NCBI GenBank assembly: GCA_965178125.1
Contig: OZ237741.1
Span: forward strand, 1 to 64,000
Direction: 5' to 3'
Length of the DNA stretch: 64,000 nt
From: Bilabrum cf. latius
Taxonomy: Eukaryota
Shown in pieces: positions 27,938-64,000 of this stretch; positions within the stretch are counted from its first letter, which is position 1, and each line of letters starts with the position of its first letter. Position numbers and translations under genes: made by a program. The notes under the pieces are model-generated. The model had not been told where the DNA came from, ran no database searches, and worked only from the letters and a program-made list of their open reading frames with translations.

Positions 27938-28048
27938 TTGTGGTCATCTATCCGTCACACCATATCCAAACGAAGCTTGCAGCGCTGATGTCCGCCTTCG
28001 TGCTCAGCGACTTCCGTGCAGTGGCACAGTTTCATACCGCTCTCACCA

Positions 28049-40900: not shown

Positions 40901-43900
40901 CTGGATACAGCGGTCCCCAGGGGTTCATGGGCACCTACTGTCATGGCCTATGGGTCTGGACGCACCAAAGCCACGGTGGAGTTCACGCGCGTCCGAATGG
41001 AGCTGCAAGGTGCGCACTTTGGGCCAGTCAAATCGTCCTCCGCGCCACGCGTGCTCGGAATGGCTAGCGGGAAGGCTGCAACGGGTTTGCGAGCTGCAGT
41101 GGAGGCAGCTGCCGAATCCAGCGCTGACTTGGATGCAGCCGCGAAGATGCGCATGGTGCTGGGAGCTGCGCGCGAGCTCACTCTGATGCCGCTTGCCCCG
41201 GTGAATGCCCAGCTCGAGTCCTGCCGCTGGGACTAGACGATGGGGTCGGTGCGCACGATTGGCACGGACATGGCCAGCTTTACGGATTACGGAGCAGTTC
41301 GGCTATCCCACGGGATGCAGACTGGCGGCACATCTGCCATGTCCCTTCGGTTTTCAACAAACTCAAAGGGGCATGGATTCGGAGACGAGCAGGCCATCGT
41401 GGGCGTGCACGCGGGCCCGCTGCAGACGCACGACTATTCAGACAAGACCAAGGTGCGGCTCGTGGGACTGCGAGGGTACAACGGGAGGTGCTACCGGTTT
41501 GGGGATGTGGTGCAGGGGTCGAGCGATGAGCGTAAGTTCCATGGGGATGAGGAGCTGTCGTTCGAGCTGTCGTTCCCGGCGGGCACAGGGCCTGGGGTGC
41601 TGCGTTGCACGACTCCACGCGGTACGTTTGCAGTGGACGAGGCTGTGCCGCGCGGGCCAGAGTACTTCCCCAGCGTGTTCACGTACGGGGCCTGCACTGT
41701 GAGTCTGACTGCGGTCCATGGGCCCGGCCTGCCTCCTTTCGTGCCAGGGGATGGAAGCTCAGTTTCGTTCGCTCAAGGCAGCAAGGGGCACTCCATCGGC
41801 GGTGTGAGCCAGGCAAACGTGCACGGGAACGAGGTGCGGAGCGCCTCAGGGGCCGGCATGGCTCGGATCAATCAGGGCATTAATTCTGGCAAGATGACCG
41901 CGAGATTCGTGTTTGAGGGCACCAACGTAGGCAACATTGCGGTTGGAGTGGCCGAGCCCGCTCTGGTGCAGCGGGAGTCACCGGACGACGGCTGTACCCA
42001 GAGCCAGATCGAGCGGCGGTCTCTTTTTGTTGGCATCGACGTGAACTCTGGGCAGAAGTTCTCATACGGAAAGACCGCCGGGCGGATGATGTCGCAGCGA
42101 ATCACCACTGAGGACTAGAGGCGAGCGGGCATGAGCATTGAGGTAAACTTTGGCTCACCATCTTTCGCAAGCGCCCAGGGGACTCTGAAGATGCGTAAGG
42201 GGACCACTGGGGCATGGCAGCAAGTGTTTCGTCTCGCTCGGGGGCGCATCTACTGCCCTGCTGTACTGTTCACAGGCTCCAGCACCACCAGGGTGAAGCT
42301 CGTGGACTTGCAATTTGAGAACGAAGCCGGGTGTACACCGTTTGTCCCCAAGTGGCCGATTCTCACGGCGCACCAACTATTGAAAGGAGATGAGCTGCAG
42401 ACGGCACTCTCCCTGAGAGGCCTCACCGAGAGTGACCTCCCGAATGGTCTGCAGCCCACTCCTCCTCCCATGCTTGGGTACCCAGGCGTTACCCCGCTGG
42501 CAGGTATACAGGTGGACCAGTCGCAGTCTGAGACCACGCAGCGATCTGAATTGTTATGTGTCTCCACTCTTGGTCTTCGCAAAGGCACCATCAAGTTCGC
42601 AGTTGTGGTGCGGGATGGGCAGTAGAGGAAGGCCGGGCACAAAGCACGCACGTTGGTCGGTGCATATCCGTCCGGGCTGCCAGATGGTGCATCTGCGCCG
42701 CTGCCCGTGGGCATTCTGCCCTGCGAGGGTAGCGCAGTCTCGAACCGGCGCCCACTCGCTGCTATGACCACGACGGAGCACCGCGTGCCTGATGGCAGCC
42801 TACTCACGGTGTCTCTCACCAGGACGTCGCCCGCTGCCTAGACAGTGTCAGTACAAGTCGAGTCCGAGCGGAGCATCCACTCGCACGCGGCCGACGTGGG
42901 AAGGGCAGGCGCGGTGCATCTGTGCATGGGCGTCATCCGCAGCACCTGCGGACAGAGGGGCCTCAAGCCGCACGGTGTGGCCATCCTCGCGGTGGAGAAG
43001 AGCGGCGGCGCGGAAGTGGTGCCATGGCTTGGGACAGTGTCCCAGGCCGAGCGGGCGGGGTACGCCCCGTTCGGCCCCCAGCCCGACCTAGTGCCGCAGG
43101 TAAGGTCCTTGAACCCTGCGGCGGGGTTCAGCTTCGGGTGCAACGTCGCGGGCCCCCGAGCCGTGAAGATGCCAGGGGTGGCGCTGGCTACAGCGCTGGG
43201 GCAGCACAGCGCATCCACGGGCGTGTTGCGATGGACTATGCGCGTGTTGAATGCAGATGCCGGCGTGGATGTGCTTCTTGGGGTGGGGCCCAGTCACTCG
43301 GGCCAGGTGGCAGGCAACGTGGTGGGAGTCAGCATGGTCACGGGCAAGGCGCAGGGCGGGCAGCTCGCGTCGGATGGGAAGACCTTCTCATACAAAACCG
43401 CGCATTGTGCTGGCAGATCCAAGCTGGCAGATGGCCGCATCCCCGCTGGCACGGACCTCCAGTTCGACCTCGTCATGGACCCAGCCGCAATCTCCCGCTA
43501 GATGACCATCCGGCGAGCTGGGTCGAGCGACGAGGGCGCGTTTGTGCGCGTGACTAGGGTCCCGGCGGGGGCTGTGGCTCCAGCAGTCGTTTTCAAGGGA
43601 TCTGGAGCCGCGGAAGTGGAGCTCAGATCTGTTGAGTTCCAGGACGGCCCCGCCCTGGCTGCGGCTCGCGCTGCCCTGGTGCCCAAGCGCCGGCCGGGCG
43701 TGCCCCAGTGGACCGACTGCAAGGAGGACATGCGCGTGAGGGGGGAGCTCATGGCCAGTGCCACGGGATGGGGGGCAGCACGGCTGGACAAAGGACTGCG
43801 GTCAGGGGGCACAGCAGCGCACACCTTGAGGTTCTCTGTGACCACCAAGGGGCACGGGAGGGGTGACGAGCAGGCCATCGTGGGCGTGCACGCGGGCCCG

Positions 43901-44833
43901 CTGCAGACGCACGACTATTCAGACAAGACCAAGGTGCGGCTCGTGGGACTGCGAGGGTACAACGGGAGGTGCTACCGGTTTGGGGATGTGGTGCAGGGGT
44001 CGAGCGATGAGCGTAAGTTCCATGGGGATGAGGAGCTGTCGTTCGAGCTGTCGTTCCCGGCGGGCACAGGGCCTGGGGTGCTGCGTTGCACGACTCCACG
44101 CGGTACGTTTGCAGTGGACGAGGCTGTGCCGCGCGGGCCAGAGTACTTCCCCAGCGTGTTCACGTACGGGGCCTGCAGCACGACGCTGACTCAGTGGGCC
44201 GGGCAGCCCGCTGCAGCAGGAGGGCAGGCCGGCGGGGCAGGGGCACCAGGGGGTGCGGCTGGAGCCGCGACTGGCGGGGCAGCGGCAGCGGGAGGCACCG
44301 GGGCTGCTCGCGCAGGGGAAGGTTCTTCCACAGCCAGTGGGCAGCTCGCGTGGGACATGCCTTCTGCGACTGGCCTGGCCCGGCTGGCCAGAGGGGAACC
44401 TACCAAGGTGGAGTTCGTGGCGGCTGGGTGCATCCGGCTGGGGCGCGGGGTGTCCTCTGGCATCATGGGGTGGACGGTGAAGCTGCCGCGGAATACCCAA
44501 CGGCAGGTGTATATCGGCGTCAGCGAGGCCCGCATCGGAGGGTCGGACTGCACCGCCCGCTCCTCGACGATGGTGTGCTTTTGCGCGGGATCGGGGCGGA
44601 AGTTCGTCAAGGGTTAGGCCAGGGGTACGGATTCCAGGCTTTCGTGCGCAAGCGCCAGCCAGGTGACGTTCCAGCTTGAGTTTTAGGGCTCGCGCGGAGC
44701 GCTTCACGCTATTACGAGCTCTGGCAGAGCGCTTGTAGCGAATCTGCCGGCTGGTACGTACTACCCGGCGATAGCGAGCAAGGCCCGTTCGGACGTCACT
44801 CTGGTTGGTGAGCCTACAGTCATTGACTTATAA
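37933..44833 (+). CDS. ~2268-aa protein: pseudokinase + ubiquitin-like domain + ~8 SPRY/B30.2-like repeats; intron 37979-38072 (needs TAG=Gln)
   Basis: Ten ORFs in one frame joined across at least 13 TAGs, ending TAA 44831. Kinase C-lobe-like segment (DIAEGALAL..CDISPEGI..LLHPDQAKR), Ubl segment (GVKLADLRSLAAQGVRDGDNIFVL) and repeated W.V...GV....FP.V..YG modules. Confidence 0.7.
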
Positions 44834-45068: not shown

Positions 45069-48000
45069 TCAGTAGTACGTGTTGCGGGCCAGCCATCCGT
45101 ACTCCTGCACAATCTGCTTGTTGCGGACCATCTGCTTGGTAGTGGCGCGCATGATGTACTTGCGGATCTCATCGTACAGGAAGATGATGAGGCTGAAGGG
45201 GACCGCAGGCACCCAGTGCAGGGCGCGCAGAGGGCGAGTACCGAGGCCCTGGCCGATACCGGGCACGTAGCATAGAAGGGCCGCCAGCAGCGTCTCGAAG
45301 ATGATGCCAAAGTTCATGGCCGAGTTGATCATGCCCTGGTGGTAGATGCTGAGCCACCTGGTCTTGCAGATGAGCAGATCGGCCCACTGCACGACGACGA
45401 TGGACACGAAAAAGGCGCACTGCGCGTGGTGCAGGGCCTCCTTCTGGCTCATGCGGGAGGCCACGTCCACCGTGATGCTGCCATCGGCCAGGCGGCACAC
45501 GCCGGTGAGGGCGTCGCAGTTCCCTGCCGTAGGCTGGTTGAAGGAGGCGAACCCGAACACGTCCTTGGTGCCCAGACTGGCGCGCAAGATGTCCAGCGCG
45601 TCCTTAGAGCCACGGGCCTCGTTGTTGAAGGGATCGGCGTTAGGGGTGATGGTGAACCAGCCGGGGAGCTGGTTGCCGAAGAAGATGATGGGGGTGGGGT
45701 CACTGCCCGAGCCGGGCACGTCGCCCTGGAAGCCCTCCCTCTGGTCCCACGCCAGCCAGTCGTCGTTCCAGAACGGAGACACGAAGGCCTGGTAGGGCGT
45801 GTAGGGGATGTAGCCAGCATCAGCCAGGGCCTGGGTGGACTCGCGGGTCATGACGAACTGGTCTCCGGTGGCCTCGCCGTAGGTGGAGGGGTCCTCGATG
45901 TCCCAGCCGCTGCTCGGGTCCCGGTCGATGCGCAGGTTCTTGGCGGGGAAGGTGCACGTGTCCACGAAGCCGTTCAGACCGGCGTCCCACAGAGTGTAGC
46001 CGGCCTGGATCGCGGCAAAGTTGTCCTGAGACCCGTCAAAGGTAGCACCAGTGGTGTCGCGCATGCGGCCTCCGGTCACGCGGCACCAGAGGGTCTGCTT
46101 GCCCCAGTTGTCGAAGGCGCCCAGCCCGGGGAGGATCTCCGGCGGATACCCGTAGTCGTTGAGCACAACCACCCAGGTGAAGAACCCGGCCGTGGCCTGG
46201 ACCACACCGATCTGCAGGTAGGCGAAACTGATGAGCTTCTTGGTCACCAGGCGATCCACGTCCGAGTCACGGGCGGGGCGGCGCATGATGTCTGCCTCCT
46301 TGTTCTCCCAGGCCATCGAGATGGCGGGCACCATGTCCGTGCCCAGGTCGATGCACAGGATGAGCACGGTGGACAGGGGCAGCGGGGTCTGCACGGTGAT
46401 GAAGATCAGGAAGGGGGTAATCTCGGGGATGTTGGACGACAGCGTGTAGGCGATCGACTTCTTGAGGTTGTCGAAGATGAGCCGGCCGCTCTCCACGCCG
46501 CGCACGATGGACGCGAAGTTGTCGTCGATCAGGATCATGTCAGCGGCGCCCTTGGTCACCTCGGTGCCGGCGATGCCCATGGCCACTCCGATGTTGGCGG
46601 TCTTGAGGGCGGGGGCGTCGTTCACACCGTCGCCGGTCACGGCCACAACCTCGTTCTCGTCGTTCTGGAAGCGCTCCACGATCTGCAGCTTCTGGTCGGG
46701 ACTGGTACGGGCAAACACGATCTCGTCGTGGTCGAAGATGTAGTCCCACTTGGAGTCGGGCGTGTCGGCCTCGAAGCTCCAGCCGGGCACGGCAATGGCG
46801 CGGGTCTCGCCCACCTCGACGAGCTCGTCGTAGTCGTTGGGCTGCTCGACGCAGGGGTCGTACGACACCTGCTCTACGTTGCCATCCGCGTCCTTGCGCT
46901 CGAGGGTCTGCTTCATGTCGCCGATGCGGAAAGTGCTGCTCGAGAAGATGTTGACCATCCTGGCGATGGCGGCGGCGGTCTTGGGGTGGTCGCCGGTGAC
47001 CATCACCACGCGGATGCCGGCGGACTGGCACTGCAGCACGGCGTCGGGCACGGCGGGGCGCGGGGGGTCGATCAGCGCGGTGATGCCGATGAAGACGAGC
47101 TTCTTGGTTACCAGCTTGTTGTGTCCCTCGATCTGCTTCTTGGCCATCTCGTACTTGGCAACGTCGTCCTCAGAGGCATCTCCGGCGGGGGCATCAGGGG
47201 CCTCGAGCGACTCGTCGATGGCCTACTCGCCCATGGGGAAGTTGCGCACGGTGGGGGAGAACATGCTCGGCACGGCAGCCTTGCCCTTGGTGCTTCCCTT
47301 GTCGTCCGAGCCGGACTGCGCGGCGGCGTTGCCCTGGGCCACTGCATCGCCGGAGCCGCTGATGGAGGCGAACTCGTAGTCCACGCCGGCATCCTCGCAG
47401 TCCTGGCGGGTCATGTCGTACTTGGCGAATCCGAGGAGGCGGCGACCCTTGGCCATGAGCCCGTTGACGGTCACGCGGAGCTTCTTGCGCTCCTCCTCCG
47501 AGATGGGCACCACTTGTCCGTCCTTGACCATGTGGCTGCAGCGCTCCACAATCTTTTCCTGGGCGCCCTTCATGTACACCGTGTAGGGAGTGTCCTCCCC
47601 GTCCGAGCCGGGCTTGCCGCGGGTGTTCTGCACCACCACGACGTGGTACTTGTTCTTGGACTTGAAAGGGATCTCGGCCACCTTGGCGGCCTTCTCGGCC
47701 CTGGTCCGGGCGATCTTGTCCTCGTTGAAGAGGGAGCAGATGTCGCCCGCGTCCGTGGGCATGCGGGCGCGGTACAGGTCGTCGTGCGTGTAGAGCGCCA
47801 TCTTGATCATGGCCGTCTCGGAGGCGTCGCCCTCCACGTCCCACAGGATCTCGGGCACGGCGCCCTCGGCGGCCACCTGGTAGAAGGGGTTCCGGGCCAC
47901 CGTGGTCCCCTCGATGAGCTCCAAAGAGCCCGACTTAAACACGGCCGCCGTGTTCATGGTAAGCGCGTCCCGGAAGAAGGGCCACGTGGCGTCGGCGGGG

Positions 48001-49919
48001 TTGAATGCGTTGATCTTGGCGTCCTTGGACTCGACGAAGGGAGAGCGGTACAGCTCGTTGTTCATCACGATCTCGGCGATGGTCATACGGTTCTGCGTGA
48101 GCGTGCCCGTCTTGTCGGAGCAGATGCACGTGGTGGACCCCAGGGTCTCCACGCCCTCCATGTTCTTGACCAGCACGTTCTTCTCCGCCATGGCCTGCGA
48201 GGTCAGGGCCAGCGCCACCGTCACAGTGGCCAGCAGTCCCTCGGGCACGTTTGCCACGATGATGCCGATCATGAACACGAGGTTGCTGATGATGTCGGTG
48301 CCCAGCGCGGCCCCGATGATGAAGAAGGTCACGCCCAGGAAGATGGCCACGGCCGACACGATGCTGATGAAGTGGTGGATCTCCTTGTTGATGGGGGTCT
48401 GCTTGTCGTCCGTCTGCTGGGTCAGCAGCGCGATCTTGCCGATGAAGGTGTCGTCGCCCGTGTAGAGCACCACGCCCACGGCGTCGCCCTCGGCCACGTC
48501 GGTCCCGAAGAAGGCCATGTTGATGGCCTCCTTGGCATCATCGCGCTTCTCCTGCTCGGCCTTGCGAGTGAGCGTATCCGACTCGCCCGTCAGGGGGGCG
48601 TTGTTCACCTTGAAGTCGTTGGTCCACAGCAGGCGCACGTCGGCGGGCACCTTGTCACCGGTCCGCAGGTAGATCACGTCACCGCGGATCAGGAACCGCG
48701 TATCGAACTTGGGCTCCGTGGGCACGTTGGGCTTGCCGTCCCTCTCGATCTGAGAGGAAGCCACCCCGTCCGCGACCTCCCTGGTGGTCCAGGGGGCCCT
48801 GTCGGTGGCCACGCGCACCTCGTTGGCCATGAGCTTGGAGAACTGGGCCATCAGGTTGGCCGACTGGGCGTTCTGGGAGAACGAGAAGATGCCCGTCACG
48901 AGCACCACCACGGCCAGCACGATACCCAGGTACAGCTGCGAGGGAACGAGTCGAGTGGGAAGAGAGCGCAACGGTTGAGGATGTTGACCAGACACGAGCA
49001 CCAATCCGTGGATCATGGATACGATCTTACGTTGTCGTAATCTTGACGAAGACCAAATCCAATGAAGCACAGCAGCGAGCCGCCCCAGAGCAGCAGCGCG
49101 AAGAAGCCTGTCAGCTCCTTGATGAAGGCCCACACCCAGTGCTCCTCGCCTACCTGAGACAACTGGTTCAAGTGTGCCTCATCGAATTCGTAAGTGGCAG
49201 CCTTCCGCTACTTCCACGAAACAACTACGCGGTCAGTCATGTCCCCCTTCTTGTCCATCTGTGAAACTTGGCAAGGTGGCAGGCTCAAATTCACGAAGTC
49301 TCCGCGTAGCAAGCGAACGGACACGGCGATAGGCCTTGTCCACGGAGATACATTGGCACATTGCTGTTCCAAATCACTGAGGTGCAGAACATGATACTAT
49401 ATGCGCATGAATACCACAGGCGCTGCTCTGTAGAGTGCTCACCTGGAACGAATAGTTGGGGATCCCGGTGCCGTACTCCGTTTGGCCAACGGTTTTGTCC
49501 TGATCACGGAAATCCCTCTTCAGGACTTCTTCCAGCTCCTAGTATGTGAGTTTATGCTCCTGTGATGGAAGGCGAGCGCATTGAAATGGCAAGGCAGGTG
49601 CGAGGGCAACAACGGAAATGACGTCGCGAGGCGCCTACTGCAAAATCGCCTCACCATCGTGTCATACTTGACCTTTGACAGCCTCTCCTTCTCAGCATCC
49701 GCAGAGTCATCTGCAGGTAGAAGGATTATGGGGCGTTCATAGCAGTAGTACGGCGATACATGCACCCCAGAGCTTGCAGCGATACGGGCGCGTGCGCGAC
49801 TATATAACGACCTCACCCTCGCTGGCATTCTGGGCAGATCTGCGCGCTTCACGGCGCAAATTCCTTGTAAGCCGGGGGTCTCGCTTGGCGAGAACGGCCT
49901 CATCCTCAGTAGAGGACAT
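45069..49919 (-). CDS. P-type IIC ATPase (Na+/K+-ATPase alpha-like), several 5' introns
   Basis: TGES, VANVPEGLL, CSDKTGTLTQNRM, MVTGDHPKTA, TGDGVNDAPALK, DLGTDMVPAIS and C-terminal TYY. One in-frame TAG at 47223; ends TGA. Confidence 0.95.
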
Positions 49920-50086: not shown

Positions 50087-51546
50087 ATGCAGGTCAATTT
50101 GCTAAGACCGCTAGGTAGAATAGCTCGAACGCTTGGGCTCGCAATTCATAGGGCAGGGCTCGCTTTGCAAGGATCTGAAGGGTATGCGGAGCGATGTGAG
50201 TGCTATGCGTCAATTACAGTTCCCAGGGATGCGATTAGTTTGTCCTCAGTGGTAATTTTTAGCAAAAACCTCGTAAAATATTGTACTTTGCGCAGTGGTC
50301 CCGTCTACGCGCGTTGTGACGCACGGGGGTAAGTCCCTGGAGACAGGCTACACGGCGTATGTAGCCCGAAGCGCCGCAGTCATCGGGGATGTCACTCTCA
50401 AAGAGGGAGCTACTGTTTGGTATGGCACCACAGTTAGGGGAGATCGGTCCAGCGTCGTAGTAGGCACTGGCTCTTCGGTGTTGGATGGGGTTAGCGTTTC
50501 GACGACAGCCGGCAAGGTTGTGATTGGAGACTCTGTTACAATCGGTAAGACGAGCACAATCCTACGAATTTCTCCTTCAGCATTCGGATTTCTAAGCTCT
50601 TTGCATCGCGTGTGCCCCCTTACCTCACCACTGCACCGCAGCCCCGGGTTCCCACCTGGACTCTTGCGTGATTGAGGATGGCGCTATGGTGGGCATGGGG
50701 GCCAGAGTGCTCGCGGGGGCAGTCGTTGGAAAGGATTCGTACATTGATGCCGGGGCAGTGGTGGGCCCCGGAGAGGTGGTGCCCGGAGGCTCCTTGTGGA
50801 CGGGCAACCCAGCCAAGGAGCTGCGCAAGCTGACGGTGGACGAGATGTCCTTCCTGCGGAACCAGGCCGCCGTATATGCCGAGCTGGCCGTGGAGCACAT
50901 GAAGGAGGAGAGCAAGGGGGCGGACGACGTCCTGGAGGACGAGCTGGTGGTCGAGTTCAAGCGCAGGGCGGGCATGCCCTTGTCGAGGCCCCTAGAGGAC
51001 GAGACGGACGAGTACAAGGCTGCCCTCGAGTACAAGGGCATGATGCAGATGCCCAAGGACACTGGGCTGTTCAGGGAGGTCGAGTACGACGACGACGGCA
51101 TGCGGGCCCAGCTGCAGGCGGAGGCCATTGCCGCGGACCAAGACGAGGAGCAGTTCTTCGACCACGCCATGCGCTTCCAGAAGGTCGCCGCTCTGTTTGA
51201 GACATTGGCACGCATCCCTGGAGACAGGGCTGGGGAGAGGGAGGCCTACATCGGCGAGCTGGATGCCAGGGACGAGGTGGCGGCTGCGTACGCGCAGGAT
51301 GTGCTGCGTCGGTGCCTCGAGGCGGAGGGCGACGAGGCCAAGCAGGTGGCCATGGAGCGGGAACTGGCCATGTTGGACCCGAGAAAGGCCACCAAGCACA
51401 GCTTTAGCGCATCTGAGGAAAGAGTAGCGCTTGCGGCACACGCCAAAGATGCTGGCATGCTGGCGGAGGGCGAGGGGGCCGCCAGCGCTTCGCAAATCCC
51501 AGCCTCAAGCAGCAGCGGAGCTGCTGCTGAGGTGACGAGGCAGTGA
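50087..51546 (+). CDS. Gamma-carbonic-anhydrase-like protein (left-handed beta-helix; mitochondrial complex I type), 2 introns
   Basis: SAAVIGDV, VWYGTTVRGD, CVIEDGAMVGMGA, LWTGNPAKELRKL; amphipathic N-terminus. Confidence 0.88.
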
Positions 51547-51925: not shown

Positions 51926-53041
51926 ATGCAAGGGGATGGGCCCCAAGGGAATGATGATTAGGGCGATGTAGTCATGGAGGAAGAAATGGACAGGGAGTAT
52001 GAGCCTACGCAGCAAGAAATCAAAGAGTATGCAAAATTTTTAGGAATGGACCCGGAAAGCGATGAGGACAAGGAATTGCTGTGGATCGCGAAGCAGGGAC
52101 TAAAAGCACCACTTCCTCCCGATTGGAAGCCGGTGAAGTGCAAGGACACAGGAGATTTTTACTACTTCAACTTCAAAACAGGGGAGAGCACGTGGGATCA
52201 CCCGGTGGATGAATACTTTAGGTCGCTGTTCAAAGAGCACAAGAGCAAGGGTGGCCAGAACGGCGGGAAGGCGGAAGGTGCGGGTAGTGCTCGGGCAGGC
52301 GCGGAGGCGGCAGGTGCAGGTGCAGGTGCAGGCGCGGAGGCGGCAGGTGCAGGTGCAGGTGCAGGCGCGGAGGCGGCAGGTGCAGGTGCAGGTGCAGGTG
52401 CAGGAGCAGGTGCAGGTGCAGGTGCAGGTGCAGGTGCAGGTGCAGGTGCAGGTGCAGGCGCGGAGGCGGCAGGTGCAGGTGCAGGTGCAGGCGCGGAGGC
52501 GGCAGGTGCAGGTGCAGGTGCAGGCGCGGAGGCGGCAGGTGCAGGTGCAGGTGCAGGTGCAGGTGCAGGTGCAGGTGCAGGTGCAGGTGCAGGTGCAGGT
52601 GCAGGTGCAGGTGCAGGTGCAGGTGCAGGTGCAGGTGCAGGTGCAGGTGCAGGTGCAGGTGCAGGTGCAGGTGCAGGTGCAGGTGCAGGTGCAGGTGCAG
52701 GTGCAGGTGCAGGTGCAGGTGCAGGTGCAGGTGCAGGTGCAGGTGCAGGTGCAGGTGCAGGCGCGAAGGCGGCAGGTGCAGGTGCAGGTGCAGGCACAGG
52801 CGCGGAGGCGGCAGGTGCAGGCGTAGGCGTAGGTGCAGGTGCAGGTGCAGGTGCAGGTGCAGGTGCAGGTGCATCTAGACGTGGATCGGGTGGATGTGAG
52901 GCAGATTCAGGCTAGGGTAGCCGAGGCGGTGGGGATGGAGATGCAGCTGGTGTCTCGGGCGGGGGGCTACACAGGACTGACACAGCAGCCACCGCTAATG
53001 GGATGGATGCTGATGACATTGGCTGGGCCATGCTAGTGTGA
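51926..53041 (+). CDS. Short CEP164-like WW-domain protein with a long poly(Gly-Ala) tract
   Basis: YEPTQQEIKEYAKFLGMDP..LLWIAKQGLKAPLPPDWKP..YYFNFKTGESTWDHP; in-frame TAG at 51959 and 52913; ends TGA. Confidence 0.75.
52296..52873. repeat. (GCAGGT)n hexamer array with GCGGAGGCG interruptions, coding poly-GA
   Basis: Directly visible. Confidence 0.95.
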
Positions 53042-53457
53042 TGCCATGGTCCTTCACGAGTGCAGTTATTGTGTGCTCATCTGGCAGGCATTTGAGCCTC
53101 CTAGGTCATGAAAAAACGCGGGACGTGCACCCCAACTGGGTCGTATCGCATCTCTCGAACCGTGTACAAGATAGTGTGATGTGCTCGATGCGCTCCGGAA
53201 TGGGTCGCGTAGGGCCACTGGCCTATGTTGCCCTGTACATGAGACGTGGGCCGAAACTGAACCGTAGAGGCGCTGCCGCCGAGAGTATCTACAGGTCTTG
53301 TCTAATGCTGATAAGAAGCACGCATGTTTGCTGGCATCTGGGCCAACGCTGGCCAGTCGCCGGCGGGTATCCCTCGAACGGACCATGATGACGAGTGGCC
53401 CTTGCCGTTGATCAAAGTGAAGCTATCCCCATCTAAACGAGAGTGATCTTGCCCAAA

Positions 53458-56400
53458 ATGGCGGAAGTTGACGGATAGGTTGTTTTAGAGGAAGAAATTG
53501 ATCCTGATTATGAGCCGACGGCTGACGAAGTAAGAGATTACGCCGAATGGCTTGGCATGGACCCAGACGAAGACAAAGAGTTGCTTTGGATTGCTCGGGA
53601 GGGCCTGAAGGTGAGCACTGCGAGATAGAAATTCAAGATTTTATTATAAGACTTAACACATAGTGACTTCCACGATGATGCACTATCGTATCGCAGGCCC
53701 CACTTCCCGACGACTGGAAACCGTGCAAAAATAGCAATACTGACGAAATTTACTACTATAACTTTAGAACCGGGGAGAGTGAATGGGATCATCCATGTGA
53801 CCAGTATTATAAGGCGCAGTACAAGAAGCACAAGGCGCAACTTGCTGCCAAGCAGAGTAGAAACAGTGATGGGCAGAAGCGAGAGCGCGAAGAAATGCGA
53901 GAAATTCTAAGCTCTCAGCGAATTAGAAAGGCGCCCGAGCCTGTGCGCACAACCGATAGTGAAACCGCTGGCAAGAAATCGTCGACACCGACTAGATCTC
54001 GTGCTAATTCTAAGGAGAGGGGCAGTAGGGCTCCGTTGGGCAGCATCAGCGAAAGCAGCAGCCCTGCGGCCCGAGGCTCCGGATCTACCCCTCTCGCCCC
54101 ACTCGGGTCACTGGGCGGGGGTTCGCTGTCCCGACACGGAGCATCCGGTGCGCTGCCTCCCCTGGGTGGAACCTCTGGTTCGAAGGCCAAGCCAGTGCTG
54201 GGCCAGCTGCCTCCAGTCAGCGCCAAGGGAGCATCCACTGGCAGGCAGATCGAGCAGGGCAGAGCCAAGGACAAGGACAGGGACAAGAGCAGGGACAGGG
54301 ACAGGGACAAAGATAGCGCTAGAGGGAAGGATGCCAGCTAGCACAAGAGGAGTCACAAGAGTGGACCTGTCGGCAAGCGAAGAGACAGAGACAGGCCGGG
54401 GAGTGACAGCGACACCGATGACAGCGGTGGAGGCTCGGGGCAGAGGGGTGGCGATGAGGCCGACGACGGGGTGCAGGCAGTGGTGGCACGCGCTCAAGCC
54501 ATGGACAGAAGGGAGCAGGGGCCCACTAGAGATGAAAGCGAACGGAAGCAAGCAGTCCTGTCCCAGGAGCTCCAAGCTAAGCTGGAGGGGATGCGGCGGG
54601 AGTGGGCGGAGAGGGAGGTCGAGGAGGAAAGTACGGCAAGGAGGAGACTGGAGGAGCTGCGGCTTGACCAGAGGAAAAAGCTAGCCGATGAGGAGGAAGA
54701 GGGGAGAAGGCGGCTGCATGAGGCGCGGGAGGATTGGGAGCACAAGGTGGACGAGGCGAAGGAGAAGGGGCGCGAGAAGCTTGACAAGGAGCTGTCGCTC
54801 GCCAGTGAACGGCTGGAAAAGGCAGCGGAGCAGTCGAGGGACCGCATGGACAAGATGCGGGCTGAGTGGGACGAGAGGGAGGAAAAGGCGAGAGAAGCAG
54901 CAAAGCGGCGCGCTGACGAGCAGCAGCACAAGGAAGAGGAGGCTAAACAGGCCGTGGAGCGGCTGGGCAAGGAGCAACGCGAGGCCGAGCAGAAATGCCG
55001 GTAGGCGAGCGAAGAGGCCAAGCGTTTCGAGAAGGAAGCGGCTGCGAGCGAGCAGAAATTGGAAGAGATCAGGGGCGTGGTGAAAGCTGCGCAGGTGGAG
55101 GCAGAGTAGGCCAAGGAGGAGGCAGAGCGGGCGCGGGAGGAGGCTCGCATTGAGAGGGCCAATGCCGCCGCGCCCGCAGTAGAGCCTGCGGTTTCATCGA
55201 AGTTGCTGCAGCAGATTTCAGACTAGGCCGCCAAGATCGATGAGCAGGCGAAGCAGATCGACGAGCAGACCACCAAGATCGATGAGCAGGCGAAGCAGAT
55301 CGACGAGCAGACCACCAAGATCGATGAGCAGGCGAAGCAGATCGACGAGCAGACCACCAAGATCGATGAGCAGGCGAAGCAGATCGACGAGCAGACCACC
55401 AAGATCGATGAGTAGGCGAAGCAGATCGACGCGCATACCACCAAGATCGATGAGTAGGCGAAGCAGATCGATGAGCAGACCGCCACGATCGATAAGCATT
55501 GCAGCATCATTGATGCACTGCAGCGAGCAGCAGGCGAGCAGGACACCTCGGTGCATGAATTGTAGAGCCAACAGACTTCCATTAGTGCTGAGCACAAGGC
55601 TGCTGTGGACGAGGCTGATAGACTGCGCGACGAGGTGGCCGGGCTACGGGAGGAGCTGGCCCAAAAGGTGGCCCAAGAGGCTGCGGTGAGAGAGCTTACG
55701 GCCCGTGAGTCTACTCTGCAGACCAAGGAGCGGGAGGTGCAGGCCCGTGAGTCTACTCTGCAGACCAAGGAGCGGGAGGTGCAGGCCCGTGAGTCTACTC
55801 TGCAGACCAAGGAGCGGGAGGTGCAGGCCCGTGAGTCTACTCTGCAGACCAAGGAGCGGGAGGTGCAGGCCCGTGAGTCTACTCTGCAGACCAAGGAGCG
55901 GGAGGCGCAGGCCCGTGAGTCTACTCTGCAGACCAAGGAGCGGGAGGTGCAGGCCCGTGAGTCTACTCTGCAGACCAAGGAGCGGGAGGTGCAGGCCCGT
56001 GAGTCTACTCTGCAGACCAAGGAGCGGGAGGTGCAGGCCCGTGAGTCTACTCTGCAGACCAAGGAGCGGGAGGTGCAGGCCACCCCATCGCTTGCAAGCT
56101 CTGATGAAACGAACGAGCTGCGAGCCAAACTGGCTGCCACAGAGGCGAGGGCGGCTTCGGCATCTGCGAGGCTGTCCGAGGCGAATGCAGCTGCCGCCAA
56201 GGCGCAGTAGAGTCAGCAGCGCACCATTGACAGGCTTCAGTAGGACCTGGGTACCGCATCAGAGGCTCGCTCTAGGCTGAAGCAGCAGCTGGAGCAGGCC
56301 AGCCGTGAGGTGGAGGATCTGCAGCAGCGCGTGGACGCTGCCTCGGCTTAGACCGACTCTGCCACTAGCAGCGCAAGCCAGGACAAGGACCAGGGCCAGA

Positions 56401-58709
56401 AAGAGCTAGAGAGCGAGGTGCGTACTCTCAAGCTGTAGCTGGAAGACGCCCGCACGGATGCAGATGCGGCCAACGACCAGCTCAACATGCTGCGGCGAGA
56501 GACTAGGCGGCTGGAGGACGAGCTCGAGGCCGCAGAGCAGAGAGCCGACCGGGCCGGACAGGCCAGCTCAGAGGACAAGAGCGCCACTGAAGCGGCGCTC
56601 AAGGAGGCGAAGGAGGAGGCGTCCTAGGCGGCTGCACGGGCCGCCGCGGCTGAGTCTGCCCTGCAGCGGGAGCAAGGTCGCGCAGGGGCAGCCCACGATC
56701 GGCTCCAGAAGGAGGAGGAGCACGTCGGTACTCTGCAGCTGGAGATACGGCGGCTTGAGAGGCAGCTGAAAGAGGCTGCACCATCGAATGTGCCCCAGGG
56801 CGTGGCGCCCCCAGAGAGACAGGCTCAGGCCACACCCGTGTGGTCACCTCGAGGCAAGCGAGCTGGCACTGCAGAGGAGTCCAAGTCACCCGATGCCGTG
56901 GAGAAGCTCATGGAGCGCATGTCCCGCACCGGGGCTCCCTGGCAGTGGCCCTCTTGGCGTCTGGACGCGCTGGTGCGGTGCAGCCGGGAGGAGCACCTCG
57001 TGGACAGGGCGGGGGCCTGGCTGCAGAAGGAGCAGCGGGCCTACTCGCGGGTCAGGGAGGCCTTCGTGGCGGCGAGGGACGACTGGAGGCACCGACGGAG
57101 GGTGCTACAGTCCGCTGCACCCTCAATGGGCCCAACTGCGAGCGCGGGTGCAACCTCCCGGGCACAGGCAGAGGGCGCCGAGCTCAACGTGCTGACGGAT
57201 CGCTTGAACGCACGGCTCTACCGGCTGCGAGCGATCAAGTCGTGGACGCAGTCGGCCACCGAGACCGTGTATGGCTTGCGGGCCGCGTGCCATGACCAGT
57301 AGTGGGAGGGGCAGAGTGGCTCGGGCGAGGGGACCTCCCAGGAGCACTGGGGTCCTAGCGACGGAGGCAAGTGGGCTGCTGCCGGGGCGACTCCTCAAGC
57401 CAGGACCAGCGGCAGGGCAGGCGACCTGCGGACCGTGTCTCCGCCCAGCCGGCCCCGTGGCCTCCATGGCACAGACGAGCGAGCAGGCCCCTCCGGCTCC
57501 ACCTCCTCGGAGGGCAGTTCCTCCGTCGTTCCCTCGTGGGCTCCCTGGGCGGCAGCCTGGCTGTATCGCCTGGATGAGGCCCTGAGTGACCTGAGCAGCA
57601 CGGCGGCGAGGTCTGCAGCCGAGTGCCAGGACAAGCACGGGCATCCTGGCTTCAAGCACCTCGGCCGGCTGGCAGGGATGGTGGGCCCGGTGTCCCCCAG
57701 CCTGGAGTGGTGCGTGCCCTTCTTGGCCGAGGACGATGCAGAGCACGAGCAGCTGCAACCGCTTGACACAGGTATTGAGAGAGCAGTCGGCAGTGGGGCA
57801 GGTAATCCAGGAGCAGAAGTTGATGCCGTAGATGGCCCAGCGACTGGTCTCAGAGACAACGGGGCGCTTGGTATAGGCGGGAGTGGTGCAAGCTCAGCTG
57901 GAGCCGCATCGCAAAGCGAGGTCCTGCGGTAGTTGCTGGCTTCCGGGCTGGTGGTGCTGCACCCTTCTCTTGCCGGTGGTGGTCGTAGTGGGGCAACCAC
58001 ACAGCAAGCCCAAGCTGTACGCAGCGATGCGGGGGCACCGCACCCTCGCCCCCCCACGCATGACCAGGGGTCTGGTCAGCACAGCCCCCATCTGCACTGG
58101 ATACACCCTCAGCACACGCAGCACCAGCACGCCCCGCAGCGAGGCCAGAGTCACCCCTATGGGCACGCTTCCGTTGGATACGGGTTCCAGCCGACCGCGG
58201 CCCATCCCCCTGTTGTGCCTCACGGTATAGCTGCAGCGTTGGCGGCAGCCACAGGGGGCCAACACGGCCACACTGCCGTGCCCCCACCGGCACTCCCACC
58301 GCGGGGCCGCAGACAGGACGACTTCGATGGTGGCCATCCCGGCTCTGGCTCTGCTCCCGAAGTTGGAAAGTCCCCGCCTCGGTCAACGTCCCCGCTGGAG
58401 CTGCGGCCCACCACCGGAGCGGAGAGGGCTGTTTCCCAGGGCCACGGCAGGGGCAAGGGGCAAGTCGGGGTGGATCTGTCCAAGGGGTCCCCAAGCAGGG
58501 ACTCAGCACGGCGGGTCCTAGCCTCCCACGGGCGTTGGCTGGCCCGCGTGCGGTCCAAGCTGGAGCTGCACGAGGCCACGAGGGCAAAGGGCAGGGCAGG
58601 TGAGAGTGCGGGCAGCAGTGCCCGGGCGCGAAAGAGGGAGAGGGCTCTCCTCCGAAGGGTGGGGGCCGAGCTGTAGGGGGGCGAGGTGGTGCTCAACAAA
58701 AGGGGGTGA
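53458..58709 (+). CDS. CEP164: CEP164-like centriolar protein, WW domain plus long coiled coil, ~1721 aa; intron 53611-53696 (needs TAG=Gln)
   Basis: G[TAG]VVLEEEIDPDYEPT..WIAREGLK|APLPDDWKPC..YYYNFRTGESEWDHPCD. One frame to TGA 58707 with many TAGs. 42-bp coding repeats at ~55233-55480 and ~55701-56080. Confidence 0.8.
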
Positions 58710-58818
58710 CACTAGATCTAGCGAGGGTGGGGTCGGGTGGGCTGGGGTGGTATCTTGGTGTGCATCTCATGATCTGGGGATCTGATCCAGTATCTGAATA
58801 CACAGAGTGTCATGCAAT

Positions 58819-60359
58819 TCACGTTCGCCTCTTCTTCTTCCTGGGCTTGGATTCTTCCTCCTCCTCCTCATCCTCCTCCTCGCCACCATCGTCCGTGTCC
58901 TCGATGGCCTCGTCCTCATCCGCAGAGCTCTCGTCCTCATCGGAGGAAGCAGCACCCGCCCCTGATGCGGCTGCTCGCCGAGACCTGCCCCCACCCTTCC
59001 CCCTCCCCTTGCCCTTGCCCTTCCCCGCCGCAGCCGCCCTGCCTCCCCTCCTGTTCTCATCCAGCTCCTTGGGGTGCGCCTTGCACCAAGCCACTCCGTC
59101 GGCGGTCTGGTCCCGGTTGCCCCTGTGCCTCAGCAGCGGCGCCTTAAGGCCCTCCTTCTCCACGAGGCTCCTCCAGGCCACCTGATCCAGCGCCAGGATG
59201 GACTGCAGCGCCTGCTGAGAGGCCGTGTCGATCTCGGCCAGGCCGCCCTGGTTGGTCTTCTGCGCGTAAATGACCGGCCTGCCGCTGGGCGCGATCTCAA
59301 CGAGGGCCCTTCCCTCCTTGATCAGAAAGGAGAAGTAGAAGAGGTTCTCGATCGTCTGGGAGAAGGACCACGGGTTCACAAGGGCCCCCACGAGGTCCAG
59401 CCTGCGCTCCCTTCGCTTGGGGTTGTCCGGGGTGGGCCGCAGGTCCATCACCTCGGTCTGGCGGAGGGCGTCCTCCAGCTGCTCGGCAATCTCCAGGTGT
59501 CGCCGTGCACCCGCCGCCTCTGCCTCCTCCACGTCATTCTCCGCCTCGAGGGTGAGCTTCTGGCCAGGGCCGTCACCCTTGGGGAGGCGCGGCCTTCTGA
59601 TCGAAGACCGCTGCTTCACGAGGTCCGTGCGCTGTGCCGCGGATCGAGCAAAGGTGCACATGGGAGGAGAGCGCCACAGGCGTCCCGAGACACGTCCAAT
59701 GCGGGACCAGTCCAGACCTTCACCGTCTTCGGACGGAAAGTGCTTCCTGAATCCAGCCACGAGGGCCGGCACGGAAAGCTGCGGGCCAAAATGGAGGATG
59801 ACACAATCATCGCCGGATCAACAACGTTGATATACCCAAAAAATACAACAGCGATGCTTCAAAGGGACTTACGATTGCTGCGTACGATCGCATGCCAGCG
59901 ACCGATTTGGACAAGCAGTCCGAAGCAAGGTCCGCCGCCTCTGTATCCAAAACGCCAGCTCTCATGGACTTAACTGCAATATTTCATAGATAATTTAGAA
60001 CAGTTTGAGCTAGGTGGAGGTGAGATTGATGACTTGCAAGTGACCAGCAAGGGCGGCAAGAGCGCTTACTCTGTTTCGACTTGACCCTCCCATCAACCCG
60101 TGTGACAACTTTCTCCAGCTTATGAATGTTTCTAATATCGCTCAACTCTTCCCTATCCTCTGCGTCGATATATTGCCGAAGGAACGGTAGGAAAGTACTC
60201 GCGCACTTGCCTGAGCATGAATTCGAAATATCATCTTGTTTGACACATCTCACTTGTCAAAATACCAATATCCTTGAAAATGGCCTTTCTGGTCGCTCTT
60301 TCATCATATTCTTCATCAACTGCAACGGTTTTAGCGCTCTTCTTTCCCTTGCGCGGCAT
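58819..60359 (-). CDS. NSE4: SMC5/6 complex kleisin NSE4/EID3-like, with 5' introns
   Basis: LDWSRIG and LVNPWSFSQTIENLFYFSFLIKEGRA motifs; ends TGA. Confidence 0.85.
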
Positions 60360-60553
60360 GGTGGGGCGCTTTTTGTGTCGTGCGAGCAACACGACGGATG
60401 GGCGGCATGACGAGTGAGCTGCAGCGAACCAGGCCGTGACCGTTTCAAGCACGATTGGGCGGAAATGTGTTGGTTCAAACCCCAAAATACCAATTTTGTA
60501 GCTTCTGAAGACTTCAGCCGCTCGAAATCCCGATTGTGTAATTCTACATTGTA

Positions 60554-63078
60554 TCACTTCTTGCGGCGCCTCCTCCCGCCCGCCTTCTTGCTGCCACGCG
60601 CCCCAGAGGAGCCCCCCTTCCCCGAAGATGCCGCCGCCGCCCCAGTCCCAATCTCACCCGCCTCATCCTTCTTCCTCAGATCCAGCTGCTTCTCCACCGC
60701 GCTGCTCACGTCGCCGCCGCTCCCCTGCGCCCCCACGGCCCCAGCCTTGCGCAGCAGGTCGGCGGGCACGGCCTTGCCCAGCGCCTGCGCCTGCAGCACC
60801 TTCTTCCTGGCCTTCTTGATCTCGGCTTCCTGCAGGTGCTTGGGCACCCACCGCTCCCTATTAGGTGGAGGCAGCTCGTCCCCGGGGTCCCTCCCCAGCT
60901 TCTACCGCAGCTAGACCAAGAAGGCCTCCCGCCGACGCGCCCGCCGCCGCAGCACCGTGGTCCTTGTCATTGGCGGCCGGCGCCGCATCCCGGTCCCGCC
61001 CGCCAGCACCGCCTCCACGCCCGCACCCAGCCCCAGCTCACCCGCCACGCTGTCAGTCTCCCCTGCACCACCCCCTTGCGTGCTGCCTGCCGTGCTGCCT
61101 GCCACCGACAGGGTCTCTAGCCCGCCCATCCCGGGGCCTGCGATGCTGCCTGACCGCAGCCACCGGCGAGGCACACCCCCGCGCTCCAGATCCTCCACTC
61201 CGGCCCCCAGCCCTGCCCCCGAAGCAGCTACTACCACCGAGTCCGCGGCCTGCTGCCGGCCCAGCAGCGAGGCCCACGCCCCCGCGAACGAGCGGGCTGC
61301 AGCTGCCACCCGGGCCTCGGCACCGGCAGCCGAGCCGGCCCACGCCTCCGCACACTCGGCCCCTTCCCGAGCCTTGCCCGCCAGCATAGCCACCGTCCCG
61401 CCCACGCGAGCCGCCCCGCGGCCCGAGGCACCGCCCCCGGCACCCTTCGAGGCCTGTGCCAGCACCGCTCCCAGAGCGCTCCCGTCGCCCTCGGAGCTGG
61501 CCGCCTGGGCGCGCGCTGCCACGAGCGCGGGTGCCTGCGACTCCCCCCCCGCGCCCTCCGCCAGCCTCGACAGCTCGGCAAAGGCCTCTCCGTGGTCCCC
61601 AGCTGCCTGCAGAGCCGCGGCCCGAGCCAGCCGCACGCGGGCCGCGCCTCCGTCCACGGCGCCCGCCTGCCCCCGCCGCGCCCCCGCGTGCGCCTGCATG
61701 CCCGCGAACCCCACCCCCGAGCCGCCCCCCGTGGCTCCTCCTTCCTTGGTCGCCAGCGCACGCTCCAGCGTCCGGGCGGCCTCCCTCGCCGCGGCCTCCT
61801 CTGCGCCCTCCCTCTGTGAGGCCTTGCGCCCCGCAGACCGTCGCTTATCGTCAGCCGCCGCAGTGGCCCGCACCAGCCAGGGCATGGCCGCCCCCTCCAG
61901 CTCCAGAGCCAGGGCATCGCCAGCGTCGCTTCCCTTGGACGAAGAGGAGGAAGACGAAGCCTTCCCGCCCTCGGGTCCACTCGTCACACCAAGCAGCTGC
62001 TTGGCCTCCGCCAGAAGCCCGCAGCGGACAGCGGCAGCCGCACCCGCGAGCCGAGCCGCCTGCTGCTGCCCCGGAGTGAGCCTGCCCTGCAGCTTGCTGG
62101 AAGCCAGCAGCCGCGCCTGCCGCACCCCAGCCGCAGCCGCCCTAGAGGGCAGGACCGCCCCGAAGTGCGCGGCCCTGGCCCTGGCCAAAGAGGCCAGCCC
62201 AGGGAGGGAGGCGTCCACGGGCCTCGAGGCCTCGACCTTCTTGAGCATGTCCCGGGCGGCCTCGGCGTATCTGGCCCGGGCCAGCAGCACCCCACGCAGC
62301 AGCCTGGGGAGGGCCAGGCTGCCCTCCACAGTCTTGGGGGCGCTGCCCTTGGCGGCGAGGACAGAGGCGCGGAGGGTGGCGGCCGAGTGGGCCAGGCGGG
62401 CCGCAGCCCGGGGGTCGCGGTCGGCCACGGCGCATGCGCCCGCGTAGGCCGCGTCCCAGTGCTTGGACTGCTCCTCGTCTGCCACCGCCGGAAGGGAGGC
62501 GGTGTCGGCGCCCTTGCCGGCGCACACGAGGGATGCGGACGCGTTGATCTCAATGAGCCTTTCCTGCTCTTCGGAACCTTTCACGATGGCCGCGTATCGA
62601 TCGGCAGCTTCCCTGAACTGCCCGGAGCGGTACAGCGACTGGGCCACGAGGCGGCTCGGGGCTCCGGTCGGTGACTGGTCCTCCGCAGCACCGGCAGCTT
62701 CGATGGCCTCGTCGGACTTACCCAGCTTGTACAACGAGTAGCCTCGCTCAAACTGCAGCGGGACGCCCGCCTTCTCGGCTGCCTGGCAGGCCGAGACAGC
62801 CTCCTGGAATTTCCCCAGCCCAATCAGAACATCAACCTTCGTCGTATGCACGTCCGCATCGGCCGCGTACTTTGCAGTAGCAAGGACTACGAGATAAGCT
62901 CAAGAGAAGCACGGAATACTATAAAACAGTTGGCCCCGATTGCCCTGCATTGCCCAGCAACACCGGCGCCCACGCTCGGGTCCATCTTACGCTAGTTACA
63001 CACAGCGACCGCCCCATCATCATCATTGTCATCAAGACATTGCACCAATTGCTTCAGATCTTCTTCTACTTCAGCCAT
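60554..63078 (-). CDS. SRP72: Signal recognition particle subunit SRP72; one 5' intron
   Basis: N-terminal TPRs (FERGYSLYKLG, AQSLYRSGQF). The C-terminal basic stretch and PPPNRERWVPK motif are reached only across TAG 60911 and 60902; ends TGA. Confidence 0.85.
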
Positions 63079-63204
63079 GCTCTCAGCAGCGCAGAAACCA
63101 GTGCATCAATCGACGAGTGTGAATTTATTCATGAAGTAACGTGCTATTTATCATGTTGCCGCGAAGCGGGACGTGAAGCACCCTAGCACCTGTATAATAA
63201 TAAA

Positions 63205-64000
63205 ATGTTGGCCCGCTTTGCCCGCAGTGCGACCAAGGTGAGTTAAGTTATCGCGTGGTTGTGTTGATTGTCGTCTGTGTTGCCCCGGACTGCCCAGCCA
63301 GCAGGTGGTGCGAAGCGTACCACTGTGATCAATGCGGGCATTGCTGCACGACTGGCAGGTCGGAAGCCTTTAATGTACCCATGCTATGCACTACTACTAT
63401 AATGCTTATTGACTGGCGGGTATGCGCACTCAGTACATGCTGTTCACAGTTCATTTGCCGGGAGGCGTGGCCAGCACACGTCACGTTGTGCACTGGGTCC
63501 GACCTCCCCGCTGGCATGTCGCGTGCGCTGTAACACGCCCTATAGCCAGCCAAAAATGCCTCGTTCGTGTACGTTCAAGAATTTACCTTCGCAGACGATC
63601 CGCCCTATGGCCTCTATGGCCGGTTCCCGCAGGTTTATGTCTGCGCGATCCGTGAGATCCAGGCTGCAAGTGTTCTTGCGACCCACCGTCTCGCGTTATT
63701 GTCCCTACTGGTATTGTCACTGTTTACTACTAGATTGCTCCGCTGGCGCTGCCACGGCACTGGACTCCATGACGGCTCTCCCCAGCAAATTCGTTCGTGA
63801 CTGCCTGTGTTGACCCGCTTGCTCGCCACTTTCGTCTCGCAGGCCCTGACGGAGCGCCTGCACGAGCTGGTTCCCGTGAAGCAGACCGAGCTCAAGGAGA
63901 TGATGGCTGAGCACGGCGACAAGAGCCTGGGTGAGGTGACCGTGCAGCAGGCAGTGGGCGGCGCCCGCGGCATCAAGTGCATGCTGTGGGAGACCTCCCT
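63205..64000 (+). CDS. CS: Mitochondrial citrate synthase, 5' part (2 introns; continues past the window end)
   Basis: Last exon reads HGDKSLGEVTVQQAVGGARGIKCMLWETS; the presequence is encoded by two short exons. Confidence 0.88.

Follow-up and report, generated by a model that had tools for sequence, protein, structure and literature searches.

The codon UAG is almost certainly read as sense in a 64,000-nucleotide stretch of DNA from Bilabrum cf. latius (the window; GenBank assembly GCA_965178125.1, contig OZ237741.1, positions 1 to 64,000), where TAG triplets lie in frame within conserved genes. This reassignment to sense is well supported at the scope of the 64-kb window. The organism would translate UAG as an amino acid, most probably glutamine, with TGA and apparently TAA still terminating. 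We regard both the assignment to glutamine and the code as a whole as probable, and the codon table is most likely NCBI table 15.

In-frame TAG codons in conserved genes

The window is eukaryotic nuclear DNA with a GC content of 55-66% per 4 kb and introns that are few and short. Homology continues past in-frame TAGs in an ATPase gene and in CSN5, SRP72 and CEP164-like genes. The Na/K-type P-type ATPase lies on the minus strand. Its main exon (45069-49178) matches five Pfam families (best E value 5.6e-35), contains TAG 47223-47225 and ends at TGA 45069-45071. An upstream, first coding exon (49031-49258, minus strand) runs for 76 codons from an ATG, carries TAG 49208-49210 and is followed by GTAAGA. 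TAG 47223 sits between the nucleotide-binding and phosphorylation domains, directly after a conserved NFPMGE, and downstream of it come the invariant P-domain and membrane segments, which align to 14 homologues. Compared with animal pumps, this protein has long insertions between domains and in an extracellular loop.

The last exon of a CSN5-like JAMM/MPN protein (8250-9254, minus strand; CSN5 E value 2e-17) contains TAG 8958-8960 and TAG 8370-8372 and ends in TGA. The former falls within the JAMM motif (SGVDV-TAG-NQ), and the alignment extends 120 residues further, to residue 221; a Protein Data Bank (PDB) search with the CSN5 C-terminus gave no match. In SRP72, identified by Pfam and PDB matches, exon 2 (60554-62886, minus strand) holds TAG 60911-60913 and TAG 60902-60904 upstream of the RERWVPKH motif and ends in TGA. 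Exon 1 (62991-63078, minus strand; ATG at 63078) has TAG 62992-62994 just before a 104-nt intron, whose joint at 62886/62991 is seen in three of the sequencing runs described below (X6, X7 and X8).

The richest source of in-frame TAGs among these conserved genes is a CEP164-like gene on the plus strand. Exon 1 (53458-53610) starts at ATG 53458 and has TAG 53476-53478 as codon 7; an 86-nt GT..AG intron (53611-53696), whose joint is present in RNA contigs, separates it from exon 2 (53697-58709), which encodes a WW domain (Pfam) and a long coiled coil, matches CEP164 in the PDB and ends at TGA 58707-58709. Exon 2 contains 15 in-frame TAGs, at 54339, 55002, 55107, 55224, 55413, 55455, 55563, 56208, 56241, 56349, 56436, 56625, 57300, 57930 and 58674. 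When 1200 residues of the protein were searched against representative sequences, 1986 matches were returned, the best with 40% identity overall, so that no close relative was found; this search gave no orthologous TAG columns outside the N-terminal region. A second CEP164-like WW gene (51926-53041, plus strand) is adjacent, with in-frame TAGs at 51959 and 52913. The two genes are paralogues, 67% identical across the N-terminal 48 residues, and in both a TAG lies at most 3 residues from a conserved VV(L/M)EEE motif. The gene at 51926-53041 also encodes a long Gly/Ala tract that derives from repeats at 52262-52873.

The TAGs that the first-pass annotation of this DNA had listed (8958, 47223, 60902, 60911 and 7457) are indeed in frame in the open reading frames (ORFs) it named, and we add 49208 in the upstream ATPase exon and 62992 in SRP72 exon 1. 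Its labels for the P-type ATPase, SRP72, the mitochondrial calcium uniporter (MCU), the JAB/CSN5 protein and the WW protein agree with our Pfam and PDB matches. The label "CS domain" is weakly supported: the p23/CS-like ORF concerned (7058-7993, plus strand; in-frame TAG 7457-7459; ends in TGA) shows weak homology, with no Pfam match at E ≤ 0.001 and p23-like PDB matches at E values of 0.031 (a plant protein) and 0.28.

Three long ORFs contain further in-frame TAGs. ORF-A (21240-26321, minus strand) has 13 in 1693 codons, belongs to no family, and its first ~100 codons may be non-coding; ORF-B (32983-37806, plus strand) has 5 in 1607 codons; and ORF-C (38030-44833, plus strand), a lineage-specific protein of 2267 residues with repeated domains, has 14 and ends in TAA. 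Searches of ORF-A, ORF-B, ORF-C, ORF-G and ORF-K against Pfam gave no family even at E ≤ 1, save for weak OB-fold matches, the only matches of ORF-B. ORF-C includes at least 7 copies of a ~200-residue domain without a Pfam family, as well as an internal duplication of 331 bp with 98% identity (41366-41696 and 43847-44177). Against a set of 5.8 billion proteins, no match to ORF-C of similar length was found, and the shorter entries included one protein of 125 residues (P0121), 93% identical to ORF-C. P0121 begins at the Met that comes first after TAG 40835, and its last residue is the one preceding TAG 41234. Being bounded by these two TAGs, it suggests that the relative from which it comes keeps in-frame stops at both places.

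TAG is the only stop triplet within coding frames

Across 15 ORFs and 12,782 codons we counted 63 in-frame TAGs, TAA (2) and TGA (13) occurring solely as the terminal codon. The count is partly circular, since TAA and TGA had set the limits of the ORFs; a frame test that is blind to stops was therefore added. All six frames were scored by codon usage with stops ignored, after training on six homology-supported genes, and a stop was counted as internal when the 30-80 codons on either side of it scored best in its own frame. Over five settings the test returned 11-16 internal TAGs, 0 TAA and 0 TGA, and 10-14 of the counted TAGs fell outside the training genes. Counting both strands of the window, only 985 of 3105 stop trinucleotides are TAG; from that share, a hand calculation puts the chance that the internal stops would all be TAG at 0.317^11, or about 3e-6. 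The earlier observation that ORF fragments are interrupted by TAG alone is thus upheld. With TAG as sense there are also 6 ORFs of at least 1000 residues; the standard code gives a single such ORF, and the number is again 1 when TAA, or TGA, is made the sense codon instead. Codes in which all three stops are sense (the Condylostoma, Blastocrithidia and Amoebophrya types) do not match the window, in which internal TGA and TAA both number 0. A merge test on stops flanked on either side by long open stretches was set aside, since non-coding frames, which also stay open over long distances in GC-rich DNA, confounded it.

In-frame TAGs are present in RNA-derived contigs

Contigs of four sequencing runs (X1, X6, X7 and X8) were placed on positions 53100-64000, their RNA nature being judged from spliced joints. 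X6-X8 come from two studies and bear two organism labels; X6 is flagged "probably DNA", though it includes spliced contigs. X1 is not independent, as the assembly may have been made from it. Seven joints with GT..AG or CT..AC ends were found in X6-X8 (53608/53695, 59778/59873, 59973/60070, 60159/60254, 62886/62991, 63235/63593 and 63651/63843), which indicates that these runs contain spliced, RNA-derived contigs; X1 has none of the seven. An eighth joint, 57196/59162, looks like an artefact, with GG..CC ends, a shorter side of 21 nt and presence in a single run.

Among the pieces listed, those of X6-X8 cover 13 of the 19 TAGs of the CEP164-like and SRP72 genes with 0 differences. TAG 62992 lies inside the 81-102 nt past the joint 62886/62991, and TAGs 54339, 55413, 55455, 55563 and 58674 are in no RNA piece among those listed. 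No differing letters were reported in any of the four runs and no TAG is removed by a joint. Splicing or editing, named beforehand as a way in which these TAGs might vanish from mRNA, therefore does not appear to remove them: 14 of the 19 are in contigs of the spliced runs, without differing letters reported.

It is accordingly very improbable that TAG is still a stop in this organism, with the frames broken by pseudogenes, assembly errors, occasional read-through or RNA editing. Such an explanation would have to account for one of three stop types alone being found in frame, for hits in essential genes (the ATPase, SRP72 and CSN5), for spliced RNA that retains the TAGs without reported differing letters, for the agreement of four runs with the window, and for a 93%-identical relative in which stops appear to occupy the same positions.

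TGA and apparently TAA remain terminators

None of the 15 ORFs needs TAG as its end. TGA is the main terminator, closing 13 of the 15, and TAA closes the other 2, as expected from the earlier statement that reconstructed genes end in TGA or TAA. The TGA of the ATPase (45069-45071) comes directly after a C-terminal YY, an end common to 12 of 14 homologues. The TAA-terminated ORFs are ORF-C and MCU only, the latter a Pfam-supported gene (28446-30023, plus strand) with TAG 30015-30017 and stop TAA 30021-30023. The coding score collapses after TAA 30021, and the sequence is visibly richer in A and T after both TAAs.

UAA is thus apparently kept as a terminator, resting on two ORF ends. Three observations temper this part of the reading. 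Read-through of the MCU and ORF-C TAAs would meet an in-frame TGA after 7 and 19 codons, respectively. Codons ending in A are avoided (CAA 19 vs CAG 116; AAA 5 vs AAG 153), in a first training set that had CSN5 in the wrong frame and that also underlies the score after TAA 30021. At the CAA:CAG ratio, about 2 in-frame TAAs would be expected beside the 11-16 TAGs, so that finding zero TAA is weak evidence. A code in which UAG and UAA both mean glutamine (UAR = Gln, table 6), with TAA too rare in 64 kb of GC-rich DNA to show itself, draws on this strong avoidance of A-ending codons and on the small number of TAAs that the stop-blind test would expect. We nevertheless judge it very unlikely, although slightly less so than TAG as a stop: internal TAAs number 0 against 63 TAGs in the partly circular ORF count, MCU and ORF-C terminate at TAA with the changes in coding score and composition just described, and TAA as sense does not extend the long ORFs.

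Two genes have a TAG close to their 3' end. MCU finishes with TAG AGC TAA (30015-30023), the TAG standing two codons ahead of the stop, and in the CEP164-like gene a TAG lies 10 codons ahead of the TGA (58674-58709); neither C-terminus is conserved. As to a leftover or position-dependent role of UAG as a terminator near 3' ends, two cases are too few to judge.

UAG probably encodes glutamine

The first-pass annotation had proposed that UAG means glutamine while UAA and UGA remain stops. Its account of read-through stands, with TAG read through in conserved, transcribed genes and no in-frame TAA or TGA, but glutamine is a probable rather than a settled assignment, and the CEP164 and CSN5 columns show serine. 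One line of evidence for glutamine is a 42-bp coding tandem repeat (55231-55498, plus strand) within the coiled-coil part of the CEP164-like gene. Tandem Repeats Finder described the array with a period of 42, 6.4 copies and 95% matches, and NCBI table 15 translates it as KIDEQAKQIDEQTT units. At the same position of the unit, copies 1-4 have CAG (55245, 55287, 55329 and 55371) and copies 5-6 have TAG (55413-55415 and 55455-55457); this swap had been reported before, and the letters confirm all six positions. TAGs 55413 and 55455 are covered by X1 pieces with 0 differences. The CAG/TAG difference is one or two events, at the diverging end of the array. A window self-BLAST for paralogous TAG columns found nothing beyond this repeat and a 978-bp duplication with TAG in both copies.

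Among alignment columns, that of TAG 49208 in the first ATPase exon is the most favourable to glutamine (Gln 14, Leu 4, Met 3, Glu 3 and Ser 0 of 33 homologues). The p23-like column at TAG 7457 shows Glu and Val. Three crude and not fully independent measures were then set side by side. The first, a BLOSUM62 mixture over six columns, scored S 2.63, E 1.72 and Q 1.46, with L at -2.8, Y at -2.7 and W at -3.9; this points to a polar residue without telling S, E and Q apart. A per-gene fit of TAG counts over 15 genes gave log-likelihoods (lnL) of -28.4 for His, -29.6 for Ser and -30.0 for Gln, with poorer fits for Leu (-37.1), Glu (-39.7), Lys (-41.2) and Tyr (-53.2). Finally, the N-terminal, coiled-coil and C-terminal thirds of the CEP164-like gene contain 1, 11 and 3 TAGs, respectively, together with 17, 68 and 34 Gln and 39, 44 and 64 Ser, and the fit of this spread gave lnL values of -11.1 for Glu, -11.9 for Gln, -17.1 for Ser and -21.4 for His. 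Hand sums of the column, per-gene and within-gene scores are Q -40.4, S -44.1, T and A -45.0, and E -49.1, and Gln is the sole residue to do well by all three.

Several observations pull away from glutamine. In the repeat, the TAG-bearing copies 5-6 also differ by 4 amino-acid changes and 1 silent change, so the CAG>TAG change need not be silent. TAG 53476 does align, as had been claimed, with the Q of human CEP164 (GDQLVLEE), but Gln is a minority state there, at 5 of 67 representatives; Ser has 50 of 67, and 27 of the 30 most similar. The window's own CEP164-like paralogue has Asp in that column, which therefore varies within this lineage. At TAG 8958 of CSN5, both PDB species shown, human and Arabidopsis, have Ser, and the ATPase column at TAG 47223 is variable, with Lys in the closest relative (82-84% identical). 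The mixture score, too, places Q third.

Serine is the second choice for UAG, with UAA and UGA staying stops and a tRNA-Ser(CUA) reading the codon, and we think it a minor but real possibility. The seryl-tRNA synthetase does not read the anticodon. Beyond the CEP164 and CSN5 columns, serine has the top summed column score and a per-gene fit equal to that of glutamine, and there is a precedent for UAG = Ser with UAA as a stop in Scotinosphaera, as described in PMC11687900. Set against this are the ATPase exon-1 column, where Ser is seen in 0 of 33 homologues and Gln in 14; the clustering of TAG in the CEP164-like coiled coil, a region comparatively poor in Ser (lnL -17.1 vs -11.9 for Gln); the Asp of the paralogue at the CEP164 column; and the repeat, which alternates CAG with TAG and not TCG with TAG. 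That UAG stands for yet another residue, such as glutamate, lysine or leucine, seems unlikely. Glu has the best within-gene fit and the second column score, Lys occupies the 47223 column in the nearest ATPase relative, and TAG 40172 falls in a Leu column in one of the ORF-C repeat alignments. Yet the per-gene fits of E, K and L fall well short of that of Q (-39.7, -41.2 and -37.1 vs -30.0), the column scores of L, Y and W are strongly negative, and the Leu column at TAG 40172 is lost once the model to which the repeat is aligned leaves that repeat out. Leu is thus disfavoured by both the column and the per-gene scores.

Two further sources of information on the residue were of little use. The TAG columns of the ORF-C internal repeats (L, P, A, T/E and K/D) were left unused, as MAFFT variants and an iterated hidden Markov model (HMM) disagree with a leave-one-out HMM. 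In a test of local amino-acid density (window-wise and kernel), no residue outperformed a uniform model in 5 of 6 runs, and in the sixth the uniform model came second to third; calibration with 100 trials per residue identified the correct one 28-41 times for six residues and 73 times for Ala. The ATPase was also used to scan metagenomes, giving 10 loci with 47-59% identity, 7 of which lack an in-frame TAG in the ATPase frame; the remaining 3 have one TAG each, in a frame running past the end of the match, and we provisionally read these TAGs as true stops. All 10 loci were taken as belonging to standard-code organisms.

Proposed mechanism

A tRNA with anticodon CUA would read UAG but not UAA (PMC5304391). 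As set out in that paper, the CUA anticodon pairs with UAG and not with UAA, and for glutamine one anticodon change in tRNA-Gln(CUG) is enough; glutamine is also given there as the commonest outcome of UAG reassignment. In the organism studied here, a Gln-tRNA(CUA) would derive from a copy of tRNA-Gln(CUG) whose anticodon changed once, and the release factor eRF1 would recognise UAG less well. A tRNA(CUA) was not found within the 64-kb window, which counts against the proposal; the sole intact tRNA is a tRNA-Lys(CUU). No eRF1 gene was present among the window ORFs scanned.

Relatives and known codes

The window contains no rRNA, and the ATPase offers an indication of affinity. Its best named relatives are all stramenopiles: Platysulcus tardus (47%), Cantina marsupialis (46%), and Heterosigma akashiwo and brown algae (43-44%). 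A quick tree placed the window beside an 84%-identical sequence, in a clade of 14 environmental sequences, and no named alveolate was close in the sample. With midpoint rooting, the 14-sequence clade is sister to a clade with named stramenopiles; a named relative in that sister clade is annotated as Heterosigma Na-ATPase. These results provide a lead towards a heterotrophic protist related to stramenopiles. The stretch is also present at shares of 0.63-0.99 in runs of four organism labels from four studies, a spread that would fit an organism travelling with other cultures.

A full-text literature search turned up no stramenopile for which a non-standard nuclear code has been reported. In the Bilabrum literature, the main texts searched make no mention of the genetic code (supplements, such as that of PMC9733931, were outside the search).

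Nuclear codes in which UAG and UAA differ in meaning are few in the accounts of PMC11687900 and PMC5304391: those of Iotanema, a rhizarian, Scotinosphaera and some ciliates. UAG = Gln with UAA as a stop is described there for Iotanema spirale, Protocruzia tuzeti and two phyllopharyngean ciliate lineages; UAG = Leu for a rhizarian (exLh) and some ciliates; and, in PMC11687900, UAG = Ser for Scotinosphaera, which keeps UAA as a stop. The fornicate Iotanema spirale resembles the window in a reassignment limited to UAG, with UGA and, in the window apparently, UAA remaining stops, and a CUA tRNA and a changed eRF1 are expected; its eRF1 has a T32G change in the GTS motif (PMC5304391). It differs in that its main stop is UAA, compared with TGA in 13 of 15 ORFs here, and in belonging to an unrelated lineage, the nearest named relatives here being stramenopiles; glutamine is the probable residue in the window. 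The phyllopharyngean ciliates and Protocruzia tuzeti have the codon table that is most likely also that of the window, with UAG and UAA uncoupled (PMC11687900). Unlike those ciliates, the window is GC-rich and intron-poor, and its ATPase stands apart from named alveolates in the sample. Scotinosphaera and the rhizarian exLh share the reassignment of UAG alone and differ in the amino acid (PMC11687900, PMC5304391).

NCBI table 15 ("Blepharisma nuclei; some phages: TAG=Q") opens every long ORF of the window, ending at TGA or TAA. The table is a description and not a lineage, and the use of code 15 by phages, as presented in PMC9523058, is a separate phenomenon. UAR = Gln codes (table 6), listed in PMC11687900 for many ciliates, Ulvophyceae, Hexamita, Streblomastix and an aphelid, are likewise changes from stop to glutamine, presumably through a mutated tRNA-Gln. 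In them UAA is sense too, whereas the window has no in-frame TAA and two ORFs that end in TAA.

The kind of code is therefore a known one, and the lineage appears to be new. We tentatively suggest, at slightly less than even weight, that UAG was reassigned independently in a heterotrophic protist related to stramenopiles, uncoupled from UAA and with both UAA and UGA still stops, and that this origin has not been described before. Each new origin of uncoupled UAG and UAA tests the idea that release-factor constraints tie both codons. Should the residue be serine, this would be only the second nuclear UAG = Ser code among those covered by PMC11687900. In a culturable, GC-rich and intron-poor flagellate with such a code, the tRNA(CUA) and the eRF1 changes would be directly readable from the genome, and the relatives at 82-84% and 93% identity suggest existing sister taxa. 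Gene callers that use the standard code cut the proteins of this organism at each TAG, as exemplified by P0121, 125 residues from an ORF of 2267. As the DNA occurs in runs labelled as four organisms, fragments may be mis-annotated in the assemblies of other organisms.

Other features of the window

Further genes were identified by Pfam matches: an aldo-keto reductase (30544-31470, plus strand), a gamma-carbonic-anhydrase-like protein (50596-51546, plus strand) and Nse4 (58819-59817 and upstream exons, minus strand). The start only of a citrate synthase, read from the translation, lies at about 63.2 kb (63200-64000, plus strand), with introns at 63236-63592 and 63652-63842 given by RNA joints. 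It has the highest contig depth within 53100-64000 and no TAG in its first ~80 codons; this would fit TAG being rare in highly expressed genes, and the ATPase has 2 TAGs in ~1350 codons.

The intact tRNA-Lys(CUU) is at 14531-14603 (minus strand). Three truncated tRNA-Lys-like copies with the same anticodon arm (26256-26359, 27877-27937 and 28038-28098, minus strand) either lack most of the T arm or have a 50-nt insert. A 978-bp duplication with 99.7% identity (26312-27289 and 28051-29028) spans the 5' part of MCU and a tRNA-like fragment, and since it covers the former, a truncated second MCU 5' end lies ~1.7 kb upstream.

Satellite arrays are found at 2583-5098 (a 155-bp unit in ~16 copies with 99.9% identity), 5097-5807 (a hexanucleotide) and 5814-6306 (a 60-bp unit). 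A further array at 16348-18065 has units of roughly 100-130 bp, and short-period repeats occupy 1-496; several of the satellite arrays yield long spurious ORFs. A dispersed repeat of ~300 bp with 92-94% identity occurs at 18505-19062 and 21311-21683, one copy overlapping the 3' part of ORF-A.

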